From sequence record KX828711: a stretch of 64,000 nt of DNA. One strand, given 5' to 3'. This DNA is from Shigella phage SH7. Positions 38,893-61,113 of this stretch are shown in pieces; within the stretch, counting starts at the first letter, position 1, and every line of letters begins with the position of its first letter. A model generated the notes under the pieces. That model searched no databases. It saw only the letters and a list, made by a program, of their open reading frames with translations, and had not been told where the DNA came from. The position numbers and the translations under genes are program-made.

Positions 38893-39363
38893 TTAATCAT
38901 GTTTCCACACCCCATCGGTATTTGACCAAAGTCGCTGATTATCTGATCCTCGCCACAACTTTTTGGTCGGAAGATTTTTCTCATATTTCCCATCAATAAT
39001 AACATCAACATATTTAAGCATTTCTAGTTGTTTAATATCTTCAAACTTATATCCTGTCCACAACCAAATGCTTTTATTGGGATAAAGATTTTTTACTGTT
39101 TGAACAATGCAATGAACAACATCTCGGTTATCAGGATAGAGAGGGTCTCCTCCAGTTATAGTTAATCCTTCTATATAATCATTATTCAAACATTCAATTA
39201 ATTGTTCCAGTGTTTCACCAGTGAATGGAACGCCATTTCTAGCATTCCACGTTGATTTATTATAACACCCTTCGCATTTATGCAAACAACCTGTAACGAA
39301 AAGAACGACCCTGCATCCAGGGCCATTCACAAAATCGCAAGGATAAAATCTATCATAATTCAT
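38893..39363 (-). CDS. nrdG: anaerobic ribonucleotide reductase activating protein (radical SAM)
   Basis: 156 aa; CLHKCEGC cluster. Confidence 0.85.
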   Translation of the reverse strand: MNYDRFYPCDFVNGPGCRVVLFVTGCLHKCEGCYNKSTWNARNGVPFTGETLEQLIECLNNDYIEGLTITGGDPLYPDNRDVVHCIVQTVKNLYPNKSIWLWTGYKFEDIKQLEMLKYVDVIIDGKYEKNLPTKKLWRGSDNQRLWSNTDGVWKHD

Positions 39364-41177
39364 TGGTGTTTAACCCTATGCATGATTTCTTTATTTTTGC
39401 CGAGATTAAATCCGCGTTCGTTCGGATTTCCCAAATAACCACATGTTCTTCTTATTGTATTCATCTTTTTAGGATCAGTTTCTCCACAAATAGAACAAAC
39501 AAATCCGTTTTCAGTAGGAGTCATCTCATGGGTACTTCCACATGTAAAACATTTATCTACTGGCATATTAACACCAAAATAATCTAAATGTTGTGCAGCA
39601 TAATCCCATACAGCCTCAAGACCTTTTAAGTTATTTTTCATATCAGGAAGTTCAACATAAGAAATGTGACCACCTGTCGCAATGAAATGATATGGCGCTT
39701 CACGAGAAATCTTTTCAAACGGAGTAATATTTTCTTCTACTGAAACGTGGAAACTATTAGTGTACCATCCTTTATCGGTAACATCTTTTACACTTCCATA
39801 TTTTTCGGTATCAAGTTTACAGAAGCGATAGCACAGGTTTTCAGCAGGAGTAGAATACAAACTAAAAGCAAAACCAGTTCTTTCAGTCCACTGCTTAAGA
39901 CGAGCATTCATTTTAGTTAAAATTTCCTGTCCAATATCACGACCGACAAGAATATTCAATTCGTGAATACCAATGTATCCTAAGGACACTGAACTTCTAC
40001 CGTTTTTAAATAACTCAATTATATCATCATCGGGTTTAAGACGAACCCCGAATGCACCTTCTTGGTAAAGAATAGGAGCAACAGTAGCTTTAACTCCTTT
40101 TAAGGAACTAATTCTACACATCAAAGCTTCAAAACACAAATCCATTCGCTCATTGAATAATTCAGTAAATTTCTGTTCATTGAACTGTGTTCCAATATAA
40201 GAATCTAACGCAATGCGAGGAAGATTCAGTGTTACAACGCCAAGATTATTACGTCCATCAAGAATTTCATTACCAGTCGAATCTTTCCATACGCTCAAGA
40301 AACTACGACAACCCATTGGAGAAACAGGAATAGATGAGCCGGTGATAGCTTTATTGTTCTTAGCTGAAATAATATCAGGATACATTCTTTTGCTTGCGCA
40401 CTCTAGAGCAAGCTGCTTAATATCATAGTTCGGATCATCTTTATAAAGATTAACACCCTCTTCAACGAACATAACAAGCTTAGGGAAAATAGGAGTTATC
40501 CCATCGCGACCCAGGCCTTTAATACGATTTTTCAGAATTGCTTTCTGAATCATTCGTTCAGTCCAGTCAGTTCCCGTACCAAATGTAATTGTTACAAAAG
40601 GAGTTTGTCCGTTTGAACTAAAGAGAGTATTTACTTCATATTCATAAGCTTGGAATGCATCGTATACGTCTTTTTCTGTTTTAGATTGAGCATAATTCAA
40701 CGCATCGGCGATTTGCCATTTTTCTGCATCCTCAATGTGTTTTGCATAGGTGCGTTTAACATAAGGAGAAAGTACTTTATCTACATTCGCAAAAGTCGTT
40801 CCGCCGTATTGGTGAGAAGCAACCTGTGCAGTAATTTGTGCCATAATTGCAGTAGCAACGCCAATTGATTTAGGAGTTTCAATCTGTGCATTACCAAGCT
40901 TAAATCCGTTTTCAAGCATTCCTTTTAAATCTACTAAACAGCAATTAGTAAATGGAAGAGCAGGGGAATAATCAATATCATGGAAATGGATAATTCCGCT
41001 TTCATGCGCTTTCATAATAAAAGACGGGACCATATTTTTGGCAATGTGTTTAGACACAATACCAGCCATAAGGTCCCGTTGAGTTGGAAAAACACGAGAA
41101 TCTTTATTAGCATTCTCGTTTAAAAGGTCTTTATTAGTTTTATGAATTAATCCTTCAATTTCTTTTTCAATTGTCAT
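39360..41177 (-). CDS. nrdD: anaerobic ribonucleoside-triphosphate reductase, uninterrupted (no intron)
   Basis: 605 aa; C-terminal Zn ribbon CFTCGS...CSICG and glycyl radical motif RTCGYLG. Confidence 0.9.
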   Translation of the reverse strand: MTIEKEIEGLIHKTNKDLLNENANKDSRVFPTQRDLMAGIVSKHIAKNMVPSFIMKAHESGIIHFHDIDYSPALPFTNCCLVDLKGMLENGFKLGNAQIETPKSIGVATAIMAQITAQVASHQYGGTTFANVDKVLSPYVKRTYAKHIEDAEKWQIADALNYAQSKTEKDVYDAFQAYEYEVNTLFSSNGQTPFVTITFGTGTDWTERMIQKAILKNRIKGLGRDGITPIFPKLVMFVEEGVNLYKDDPNYDIKQLALECASKRMYPDIISAKNNKAITGSSIPVSPMGCRSFLSVWKDSTGNEILDGRNNLGVVTLNLPRIALDSYIGTQFNEQKFTELFNERMDLCFEALMCRISSLKGVKATVAPILYQEGAFGVRLKPDDDIIELFKNGRSSVSLGYIGIHELNILVGRDIGQEILTKMNARLKQWTERTGFAFSLYSTPAENLCYRFCKLDTEKYGSVKDVTDKGWYTNSFHVSVEENITPFEKISREAPYHFIATGGHISYVELPDMKNNLKGLEAVWDYAAQHLDYFGVNMPVDKCFTCGSTHEMTPTENGFVCSICGETDPKKMNTIRRTCGYLGNPNERGFNLGKNKEIMHRVKHQ

Positions 41178-41647
41178 TTTAAACTCTTTCTAAGCTGCTT
41201 CTTGAATGAAGCTATTAACTGTGTTTTGGTATCAGATTCATTATATTCAAATCCTCTTTGAAGCATCTCGGCCATCATTTCCTCTTTTCCTAAACGAGAA
41301 AATTCCTTTGATTTATCTCCAACAAAGTTAGGGTGAATATTATTTTGGGTGTAATCGGATTTTAAATAAGTAAGTAAATTTTCTAACCATTCAAGATAAT
41401 CAACACCTTGTCCCTTTAAGCCAGAACGATTAAATTTATGTTTCATTTGACCTTCTGCGGCATTACAGAGATTGCAAAGCAATCCACGCACCTTTCCTGC
41501 TTTTGGTCCATTTAATTCATGGTCATGGTCAAGATGATTAGCTTGAACATCAGGATTTAGTTCTCGTTGGCAAATTAAGCATTTACCGTTTTGTGCATCA
41601 TAAAATTTCTGTTTTTCTTCTTTATATAATTTGCCAGTCAATAACAT
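41174..41647 (-). CDS. 49: endonuclease VII (Holliday junction resolvase)
   Basis: 157 aa; Zn-binding CLICQ...HLDHDH...CNLCN. Confidence 0.8.
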   Translation of the reverse strand: MLLTGKLYKEEKQKFYDAQNGKCLICQRELNPDVQANHLDHDHELNGPKAGKVRGLLCNLCNAAEGQMKHKFNRSGLKGQGVDYLEWLENLLTYLKSDYTQNNIHPNFVGDKSKEFSRLGKEEMMAEMLQRGFEYNESDTKTQLIASFKKQLRKSLK

Positions 41648-58784: not shown

Positions 58785-59050
58785 TAGTATTTTTCCTCTG
58801 GTTGGAACACTGCACGACAAGCCCACATACTGGCTTCTTTGAGTTTCGTTTTAGCAATAGTTAACTGATCGAGGCTTTCAGCATAATTCTTCGCGAATTC
58901 ACAGTCTTCACAATTATCTAGTGCTTCCCAGAATTCATCGTATAAAGCGTCAAAGATAAGTCCTAAACGAACTTCAGCGTCTTTGATAGCATTCACTTTA
59001 CCGATTTTCTCTTCAGTATGTGGCTTATAACCCTTAATGTCTTCAATCAT
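58784..59050 (-). CDS. small acidic protein (vs.4/vs.5 position)
   Basis: ORF; start chosen to minimise overlap. Confidence 0.35.
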
Positions 59051-59264
59051 ATTTAACTTCCTCACCAGTACATAAATCATATTCAACTAAACGAATAGGT
59101 TCATGAATGCCATATCCCTGAACAGAAATTTCTGTCGTAGGATAAATTCCACTAATATCACCCATATTCCACGCTTCATTAAATTGCTGTTCGCCTGAAT
59201 TACTAAACCATTCTGCGAAAGCATTTAGCACATCTTTAGAACCTTCAATAATTATCTTTGCCAT
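59043..59264 (-). CDS. small hypothetical protein
   Basis: 73-aa ORF. Confidence 0.4.
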   Translation of the reverse strand: MAKIIIEGSKDVLNAFAEWFSNSGEQQFNEAWNMGDISGIYPTTEISVQGYGIHEPIRLVEYDLCTGEEVKYD

Positions 59265-59626
59265 TACAGACTCTCAGTAAAGGTACGAGCGATAACGTCG
59301 CGCTGCTGTTCCGGAGTCAGAGAGTTAAAGCGAACTGCATAACCGGATACACGGATGGTCAGCTGCGGATATTTTTCCGGATGCTTAACTGCATCTTCCA
59401 GAGTTTCACGACGCAGAACGTTAACGTTCAGGTGTTGACCACCTTCAATTTTAACTGTAGGTTGTGTTTCAATTTCAATTTCACGGGCGTGCAAACCATA
59501 GAAAATTTCTGGGTCTACAAAAGAGTCCTCTTTAAAGGTTTTAGAGACAATAATTCGCGCTTGAATACCATCTTCAAAATAAATAGTACCTTTATGCGTG
59601 CCTTCAAGAATTTGATATGCTTTCAT
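59264..59626 (-). CDS. autonomous glycyl-radical cofactor (GrcA/YfiD-like)
   Basis: 120 aa; C-terminal glycyl-radical fingerprint RVSGYAVRF as in pyruvate formate-lyase. Confidence 0.7.
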
Positions 59627-59633
59627 ATAAACC

Positions 59634-59963
59634 TCAATTAGAAAATAAATTTATCCAAGATTGTTCTTTAATTAAAAATGGCTCAGAATCATATGCCATT
59701 AAACTTTGCGTAATTAATCCTTTAAAAGGTCCATCAATAAATTCCATGGTAAAATATGGAATTTTATTCATTAGCCGTGCATTAGGAGCCGTGCACAAAA
59801 CTCTGCATCCTTTGAATACGCCTTTTTGTAATTTGTATTGCTTAGGATAAAATTCACTTAAAATGTTATTTTTTGCCAAAATTTCAAAATGATTCACCAA
59901 TTTATTTTTAATAGTTTTTGGTGAAAAATAAAGATATTCAAAAAGTTGCGCATCTGTCATCAT
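59634..59963 (-). CDS. hypothetical protein
   Basis: start at MMTDAQ; ATGA overlap with upstream gene. Confidence 0.4.
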
Positions 59964-60499
59964 TGCATTCCGATTACGAAAAACTGTGGACGAGTAATAC
60001 CACCAATACAACATTTAATATTACAGCAGCAGTGTACAGTGTCAATATGGACGCTATAAATCTTATCCATATCAGGAGATTTGACAGGCTCATCAATTAT
60101 ATACAAAATTCGCGAAAGCGATAAACCTCTGAACTTGCTTCCTTTATTACCAATAAAACTGCGCACAGAATCAGTAAATAAACGAAAACGTATATCATCA
60201 TTAGAATAACGCGAAAATTCCTTTTTAATGTTATTTGCAGAAATTTTAGCGTAAGCTGAAGTATTAGAAAGAACAATAACTGTTCCGCCATCATACAGCC
60301 AATTAGCAGCAAAGTTAGTCACAGCAATTGATTTACCGGATTGACGTCCACCATCTAGTCGAAGTGTGCAATACTGTTTAAGTAATTCTTCAAATGGCGG
60401 AATATATTCGTTTTTACAAATTTCTTCTACTCTAGCATCAGAATGGTGTGTAAAAGCATTCATCAGGGATAGATAAGGACCAGTTAAAAATGTTCTCAT
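59960..60499 (-). CDS. P-loop protein with C-terminal Cys cluster
   Basis: 179 aa; Walker A-like GGRQSGKS; HCCCNIKCC near C-terminus. Confidence 0.45.
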   Translation of the reverse strand: MRTFLTGPYLSLMNAFTHHSDARVEEICKNEYIPPFEELLKQYCTLRLDGGRQSGKSIAVTNFAANWLYDGGTVIVLSNTSAYAKISANNIKKEFSRYSNDDIRFRLFTDSVRSFIGNKGSKFRGLSLSRILYIIDEPVKSPDMDKIYSVHIDTVHCCCNIKCCIGGITRPQFFVIGMQ

Positions 60500-60639
60500 T
60501 TCTTCTCTCTAAGTTTGGGCCATTCCGTGGCGCATGAATTGTCCATTTCTGTATTTACCCATTACCGCGCTTGGGCTCGACCTTATTACAGGTTGGCGGG
60601 AATCCCTCATAGAATCATGAGGTCCAGGTTGTTCCCATA

Positions 60640-61113
60640 TTATTTGAACGATTTAACGTACTGAATAGAACCTTTACTATTCACAAAGGCAATTTTACCA
60701 TTTTTGTTATACATAGTAGCAGTACGTTGATAGCCATAAGTTTGTTTACCAGATTGATAACCAACTAATGCGAAATTATCTTCACCCATTTTATTCTGTT
60801 TAGCGCGAATGCGTTCATGACCATGTGCCATAAGAACCTTAGCATCACCGGTTGCAATGGATCGACGAGTTTTTTCATCTTCAACTGTATTAACAAAGTC
60901 GTCAAATGAATCAAATTTAGCATGAGATTTATTATACAGTTTTCCATCTACTGCATAATTATATCCCTGTACATCCATCTCAACTTCTGTACCATCATCC
61001 AGTACAGCAGTGATTTTCTGTCCTTTTTTAAATTTCAAAAGATCAGTAAAAGATTCAGCAATAATTTGAGAATTAATAGCTGCTTCAGTAATAAATTCTT
61101 GATAGGTTTTCAT
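60640..61113 (-). CDS. internal (capsid-packaged) protein with CTS MKTYQEFITE
   Basis: 157 aa; N-terminal 10-mer matches the T4 internal-protein capsid targeting sequence; ipII/ipIII region. Confidence 0.65.
   Translation of the reverse strand: MKTYQEFITEAAINSQIIAESFTDLLKFKKGQKITAVLDDGTEVEMDVQGYNYAVDGKLYNKSHAKFDSFDDFVNTVEDEKTRRSIATGDAKVLMAHGHERIRAKQNKMGEDNFALVGYQSGKQTYGYQRTATMYNKNGKIAFVNSKGSIQYVKSFK

Follow-up and report, generated by a model that had tools for sequence, protein, structure and literature searches.

A GrcA-like gene of Shigella phage SH7 and a tract of E. coli-identical DNA in its glycyl-radical domain

Only two spare-part proteins, YfiD (GrcA) of Escherichia coli and Y06I of phage T4, both of ~14 kDa, are described as validated in a 2021 JBC paper (PMC8683613). 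That article, together with PMC13450708, states that the activating enzyme of pyruvate formate-lyase (PFL), i.e., PFL-AE, puts a glycyl radical on YfiD and on T4 Y06I, and that both proteins form a complex with oxygen-cleaved PFL, the activity of which is restored; the source cited for these observations is Wagner et al. 2001 (BBRC 285:456). According to a 2026 review (PMC13450708), YfiD is helped in radical installation by its N-terminal region, and spare parts for other glycyl-radical enzymes are considered conceivable (PMC8683613). T4 Y06I is probably the product of vs.6 (NP_049730), since vs.6 is the sole GrcA-like gene annotated in the T4 stretch that we examined and the size of its product (13.8 kDa) agrees with ~14 kDa. 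This gene was found in 6/6 T4-like genomes in 2006 (PMC1524935), and RefSeq labels it "autonomous glycyl radical cofactor GrcA" in both T4 and T2. Given this label and a function that was reported in 2001, vs.6 as a GrcA-type spare-part gene is already known.

Here, we describe vs.6 of Shigella phage SH7 (sequence record KX828711) in a stretch of 64,000 nucleotides that was analysed as a whole and is called the window. The mosaic pattern of its DNA is the one possibly new point: the literature searched, which excluded key subscription papers, gave the functional work and annotation at the Pfam level but no description of the host-identical tract or of its Klebsiella counterpart, and an earlier mention is possible. 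Our overall reading, which we consider very probable, is that vs.6 is a GrcA-like PFL spare part and an old phage gene, the radical-domain part of which was recently overwritten by E. coli grcA.

Locus and family assignment of vs.6

Judged from its sequence, the window is that of a Tequatrovirus (T4/T2-type phage), and the 2-kb stretch around vs.6 has 97-98% identity with many genomes of this genus, T2, T4-type phages, and KAW1E185 among them. In T2 and T4 the syntenic gene, flanked by vs.7 and vs.5 and located downstream of regB, is vs.6. The original prediction had placed at 59264-59626 a 120-aa GrcA/YfiD-like protein carrying RVSGYAVRF, the pyruvate formate-lyase glycyl-radical fingerprint; the frame was recovered there on the minus strand with an ATG start, and the fingerprint occupies residues 92-100 with the radical glycine at G95. 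The features of the gene and of its surroundings are listed in Table 1.

Table 1. Features of the vs.6 region and of the nrdD/nrdG region in the window.
Feature	Position	Strand	Basis or remark
vs.6 CDS, 120 aa, 13.8 kDa	59264..59626	(-)	ATG-initiated ORF; family matches
5' part of vs.6, phage-type; residues 1-59 plus one base of codon 60 (the first)	59449..59626	(-)	probable, strongly diverged homologue of GrcA N-terminal region
Host-identical tract, 175 nt, gene nt 179-353 = E. coli grcA nt 200-374, 100% identity	59274..59448	(-)	longest exact run
Gly95 GGT codon, predicted radical site (= GrcA G102, PFL G734)	59342..59344	(-)	sequence and PFL alignment offset
Last 10 nt of vs.6, phage-type synonymous bases, right edge of tract	59264..59273	(-)	base comparison
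Shine-Dalgarno GAGG, 5 nt 5' of vs.6 ATG	59632..59635	(-)	read from sequence
vs.7, upstream of vs.6	59634-60014	(-)
Promoter-like site TTGACA-16-TAATAT, 5' of vs.7	60045-60018	(-)
vs.5-like next gene	59043-59264
nrdD, 605 aa	39360-41177	(-)	Pfam NRDD 1.7e-171; also matches Gly_radical
nrdG	38893-39363		Fer4_12 1.4e-48 and Radical_SAM
157-aa ORF directly upstream of nrdD	41174-41647	(-)	carries HLDHDH...CNLCN

The gene is tightly packed with its neighbours. Its Shine-Dalgarno sequence overlaps the TGA stop of vs.7, so vs.7 and vs.6 are probably co-transcribed, and its TAA stop overlaps the ATG of the vs.5-like gene as TAATG. The promoter-like site 5' of vs.7 is the sole one nearby on this strand; a scan for promoters and terminators around vs.6 gave nothing above the expectation from shuffled sequences. 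Further upstream, the stretch 59634-61113 on the minus strand holds vs.7, then a 179-aa ORF, and then a 157-aa ORF, with no denV visible in it. T2 holds at the matching upstream position a 474-nt gene annotated ipIV (internal virion protein), and the gene order on the vs.7 side matches that of T2 and KAW1E185, unlike that of T4 (vs.8, denV, ipII).

By homology, vs.6 is a stand-alone copy of the C-terminal glycyl-radical domain of PFL and a relative of bacterial GrcA/YfiD. Its sole Pfam domain is Gly_radical (PF01228; residues 60-101), matched with E=2.2e-18 and 67.2 bits against a gathering threshold of 22.2 bits. The top match is TIGR04365, the NCBIfam model of GrcA, with 1.4e-45 and 154.6 bits, where residues 20-120 align to model positions 25-126. 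The equivalog cut-off of 170 bits is not reached because the N-terminal half of vs.6 is shorter than that of GrcA and has diverged from it (15/60 residues identical); an ..ARxIVxK..F.ED.. patch can be made out in the alignment of the two N-terminal regions, which at just 25% identity are putative homologues. Among structures, the E. coli autonomous glycyl radical cofactor YfiD/GrcA (PDB 6owr) matches residues 22-120 with E=4.6e-42, and E. coli PFL (PDB 1h16) matches residues 58-120 over its own residues 697-759 with E=4.8e-26, an alignment that sets G95 opposite PFL G734. From E61 to the C-terminus, all 60 residues are identical to E. coli GrcA (60/60), so that 6owr is an NMR structure of a domain identical to the radical domain of vs.6. 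The proposal of a GrcA/YfiD-like protein is thus confirmed by the Pfam and 6owr matches and by the C-terminal identity, and the alignment to GrcA that had been put forward as a check extends over the whole radical domain rather than the Gly motif alone. The family is also widespread in phages: phrog_1209 (PHROG 1209) matches vs.6 over its full length (residues 1-120, 5.4e-63), and 1514 phage records, among which are T5-like, Aeromonas, and jumbo phages, have DNA matches to vs.6.

A host-identical tract within one reading frame

At the DNA level, vs.6 is made of two kinds of sequence. The 175 nt in common with E. coli grcA code for the structured glycyl-radical domain, and the first 178 nt of the gene are about 45-50% identical to E. 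coli grcA; all similarity stops at the stop codon. The composition follows the same division, i.e., GC is 46-51% in the tract and ~30% in the flanks, and GC3 is 0.43 in the tract, like the host gene, and 0.22 in the 5' half, like the phage. This 5' half is conserved among Tequatro-, Mosig-, and Jiaodavirus. When gene nt 179-363 were compared with 5426 complete E. coli genomes, the best match fell in the 95-99% identity band in every genome, and identity was 98.9% in the ten matches listed. For scale, the longest exact run is 36 nt between the grcA genes of E. coli and Citrobacter, and 11-20 nt for phages with an unreplaced tract.

The right edge of the tract lies inside the gene. Two synonymous mismatches to E. 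coli are present in the last 10 nt (GAG AGT in the phage, GAA AGC in the host), and the phage bases are common to the distant phage homologues Lemur and leB; such a phage-type right edge is expected if an internal patch was replaced within a pre-existing phage gene. The last 10-20 nt keep phage-specific synonymous bases in every lineage of phage homologues. It may be that the right edge resists replacement owing to the TAATG overlap with the start of the downstream gene.

Constraint on the protein cannot explain the identity of the tract DNA, since Cronobacter phage leB encodes the identical 60-aa domain with DNA that departs from E. coli grcA at 29/183 nt. At 17/18 tract codons that are non-preferred in E. 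coli (e.g., CAA, AAG, CAT, TAT, TTT, GTA), the window has the same codon as E. coli, where the table of preferred codons was taken from general knowledge. Convergence of codon usage was rejected on these 17/18 matched non-preferred codons, on the GC3 of 0.22 in the 5' half, and on the 29 nt differences of leB. A transfer from phage to host was likewise rejected, since the tract in E. coli agrees with the pattern of enterobacterial species and with the GC3 of the 5' half of the host gene; over tract nt 1-160, E. coli grcA has 13 differences from Citrobacter and 28 from Salmonella. As far as these base comparisons go, the direction of transfer is from host to phage.

Distribution and origin of the tract

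The comparison covered 79 IMG/VR loci and 17 GenBank phage genes against 80 species-representative host grcA genes, and differences between phage tracts and host grcA were counted over tract nt 1-160. Tequatrovirus and Mosigvirus have 0-6 differences from E. coli grcA and 21 or more from Klebsiella grcA. For Jiaodavirus the relation is reversed, with 17-22 differences from E. coli grcA and 3-12 from Klebsiella grcA. All other phage lineages (Pseudotevenvirus, Krischvirus, T5-like, Biquartavirus, Alcyoneusvirus, and 70-odd IMG/VR loci) have 24-65 differences from every host allele tested, and their radical domains are conserved by selection alone. The host-like tract is therefore confined, among these 79 IMG/VR loci and 17 GenBank genes, to the Tevenvirinae genera Tequatro-, Mosig-, and Jiaodavirus. 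No such tract was seen in the Cronobacter, Citrobacter, Salmonella (T5-like), and Aeromonas phages, in E. coli phage ECD7, in Klebsiella phage Lemur, or in the jumbo phage Muenster. Host tracking as a general property of phage grcA genes was rejected, as the tract is limited to three Tevenvirinae genera.

The Klebsiella counterpart was found in the Jiaodaviruses JD18, Shinkou, RCIP0102, AM_K4, and W1W2-10, which have the orthologous phage-type 5' half with GC3 of 0.18 and a 3' half with GC3 of 0.59; JD18 has the Klebsiella-specific Ser in LTSEQQ. With a host panel that lacked the K. pneumoniae complex, the best match of the Jiaodavirus tract was 88.5%, and Klebsiella references were then added by means of a protein search and three contigs. 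Please note that the Klebsiella reference alleles are 2-6 positions apart and were taken from contigs that encode two closely related GrcA proteins; NCBI names one of these proteins GrcA of Klebsiella variicola.

Several records stand beside this pattern. In Escherichia phage OES_C-2 (PQ642263, 329-685), the 5' half of vs.6 has lost 6 nt in frame, by which EIEIE becomes EIE, and no tract comes nearer to E. coli grcA than that of this phage (99.5% over 185 nt). Klebsiella sp. WOUb02 "plasmid unnamed4" (NZ_CP170105.1, 37554-38934), a 275-kb replicon, holds a host-type full-length grcA, the tract of which differs from the chromosomal Klebsiella alleles. The IMG/VR locus L121 is a Yersinia-like full-length grcA, 91% identical to L070 in the tract, and the IMG/VR loci L162-L172 are pflB/tdcE-type C-termini on "viral" contigs; L121 and L162-L172 probably represent host DNA, or the flanks of prophages, that was binned as viral.

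Within the E. coli phages, the two parts of the gene differ in age. Between the window and the IMG/VR locus L098, the 5' half of which has the pattern of Mosigvirus O157 typing phage 6, the base differences amount to 17/180 for the 5' half and 0/173 for the tract (Fisher p=1e-5); between the window and O157 typing phage 6 itself they amount to 22/180 and 4/173, respectively (p=4e-4). On these difference counts, the tract is younger than the 5' half. Its edges are constant: the left one is at grcA nt 199/200 in every record listed among ~640 with a match of >=95% identity, and the right one is at the last ~10 nt in the Tequatro- and Mosigviruses examined.

T-even phages fragment host DNA, and their UvsX-dependent recombination is very active. 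In the model that we propose, the whole vs.6 gene would be an old phage homologue of grcA, kept by purifying selection similar enough in its radical domain for recombination with the host gene; the ~84% identity of the conserved domain to the host gene would permit strand invasion. In the T-even lineage of E. coli phages, the radical-domain part would recently have been overwritten by E. coli grcA through homologous recombination, and in the Klebsiella Jiaodaviruses a parallel overwriting by Klebsiella grcA would have taken place. Since the two tracts are host-specific, one of E. coli type and one of Klebsiella type, the data point to host-to-phage gene conversion on at least two independent occasions, in E. 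coli and in Klebsiella. We think it likely that the radical-domain half has been overwritten by the grcA of the current host, by recombination in lytic infection, and that it tracks the host species, i.e., E. coli type in Tequatro- and Mosigvirus and Klebsiella type in Jiaodavirus.

Another course of events has to be weighed here. E. coli grcA may have been captured once, recently, in one ancestor and then spread from phage to phage among the T-even phages, with a second single event in Klebsiella. T-even phages recombine freely with one another, and the private substitutions in the tract are scattered singletons, as such a spread would have it. The constant edges described above were counted on the same side, although they do not discriminate, because any conversion that followed the first replacement would be limited to that homologous block; for the E. 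coli phages, one transfer followed by phage-phage spread fits the constant edges as well as repeated conversion does. The two host-specific tracts, which show at least two occurrences, speak against a single capture, and we regard it as plausible while leaning somewhat against it.

If host-tracking overwriting is true, the tract is a clear and datable case of host-to-virulent-phage gene conversion within a single reading frame. A perfect host tract of 175 nt in an AT-rich phage gene, with an independent Klebsiella counterpart, would be a natural and easily sequenced recombination marker, and it would report the recombination of host chromosome fragments with a virulent phage genome. It would also mean that the radical domain is so strictly constrained that phage and host copies stay recombination-compatible.

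Function and relation to described proteins

By analogy with T4 Y06I, we infer that this vs.6 has carried over the PFL-repair function. Following the T4 vs.6 match, host PflA (the PFL-activating enzyme, a radical-SAM protein) would install the radical on Gly95. Oxygen would cut host PFL at Gly734 and destroy its radical domain; activated vs.6 would dock onto the truncated PFL and supply a new radical loop, by which PFL activity, i.e., the conversion of pyruvate to acetyl-CoA and formate, would be restored. The fermentative energy and carbon supply of the infected cell could in this way be sustained under microaerobic or fluctuating-oxygen conditions. The activation kinetics of vs.6 could differ from those of GrcA, because its N-terminal half, the part that in YfiD aids the installation of the radical, has diverged. 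As the literature searched gave no in-vivo phenotype for a knockout of vs.6, a benefit to the phage is presumed; it would imply an investment by T-even phages in continued host fermentation (PFL) during oxygen fluctuations such as those of the gut.

Two other roles were considered, and both seem to us improbable. Phage-encoded mimics that titrate host factors are common, and vs.6 might be a decoy or modulator of this kind, competing with host PFL, GrcA, or TdcE for PflA, or binding intact PFL, and thereby redirecting fermentation (e.g., towards lower formate) with no rescue. The divergence of its N-terminal half from GrcA, in a region that influences radical installation in YfiD (PMC13450708), could be taken in this sense. 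A pure decoy, however, would not need a functional glycine, so a radical domain that is identical to that of the host, glycine included, across hundreds of phages speaks against it, and the effect published for Y06I (PMC8683613) is restored PFL activity, not inhibition. We consider such a role very unlikely.

The original prediction had left two enzymes as candidates for repair, host PFL and the phage NrdD, and had noted that the window encodes NrdD and NrdG at 38.9-41.2 kb. The latter is correct by the Pfam matches in Table 1. As to the target, the PFL part stands on the biochemistry of T4 Y06I, presumably the product of T4 vs.6, from which this vs.6 differs at 2/120 residues, and the NrdD part does not stand, on the BLASTP result and the distance between the genes. 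NrdG would, under the NrdD proposal, activate vs.6, which would replace the oxygen-cleaved radical domain of NrdD; both genes are encoded in the window, NrdD is itself a glycyl-radical enzyme that matches Pfam Gly_radical, the grcA-like gene of the jumbo Klebsiella phage Muenster has nrdD and nrdG on either side, a role in nucleotide metabolism has been speculated on (PMC1524935), and spare parts for further glycyl-radical enzymes are conceivable (PMC8683613). Against this, BLASTP of vs.6 with the NrdD of the window gave no similarity (best E=2.6, away from the NrdD glycine region), the radical motifs differ (RRTCGYLG in NrdD, RVSGYAVRF in vs.6), nrdD and nrdG do not adjoin vs.6 in this genome but lie 18 kb away, and the activity published (PMC8683613) is that with PFL and PFL-AE, so that the NrdD spare-part reading was rejected for this phage and is, in our estimate, scarcely credible. 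A domain that is identical to GrcA and tracks host grcA DNA is fitted to PFL, and we retain PFL as the presumed target.

Muenster (MT708547, 347 kb) has its grcA-like gene between nrdD and nrdG in positions 1-2504, with an NrdA.1-like ORF intervening; it is the only linkage seen of a phage GrcA with anaerobic RNR genes, and a simpler reading of the arrangement is that of an "anaerobic" gene cluster. In the window, nrdD is a single uninterrupted 605-aa ORF, the stop of which is overlapped by nrdG by 4 nt. T4 nrdD (sunY) carries a group I intron, and the window phage would be intron-less at that site. The 157-aa ORF directly upstream of nrdD may be the counterpart of T4 endonuclease VII (gp49).

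For vs.6 as a PFL spare part, the closest described protein is its T4 namesake. T4 vs.6 (NP_049730) has the same length of 120 aa and is identical at 118/120 residues; the two substitutions are T54P and R73H, the radical domain is otherwise the same, and the T4 locus regB - vs.3 - vs.4 - vs.5 - vs.6 - vs.7 is orthologous to that of the window. E. coli GrcA is, like vs.6, a stand-alone glycyl-radical domain of ~14 kDa, with 175 nt of DNA identical between the genes and with the same presumed activase (PflA) and the same presumed target (PFL). The N-terminal half of vs.6 is 7 residues shorter than that of GrcA, with 15/60 residues identical, and vs.6 is a phage gene with AT-rich 5' codons in a cluster of early genes, whereas host grcA adjoins ung. 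The C-terminal radical domain of PflB (1h16, 697-759) is ~78% identical to vs.6 over 63 residues, as counted by eye, and has in common with it the fold-defining residues around G734; vs.6 is without the catalytic barrel of PFL, including the Cys418/Cys419 active site, and is therefore no enzyme by itself. The GrcA-like genes of Tequintavirus (T5-like), Pseudotevenvirus, Krischvirus, Aeromonas Biquartavirus, and jumbo Alcyoneusvirus have the same architecture as vs.6, i.e., a short variable N-terminal half and a conserved ...RVSGYAVRF domain, and, unlike vs.6, they have no recent host-derived tract, in keeping with the 24-65 bases per 160 nt at which they differ from each host allele compared.
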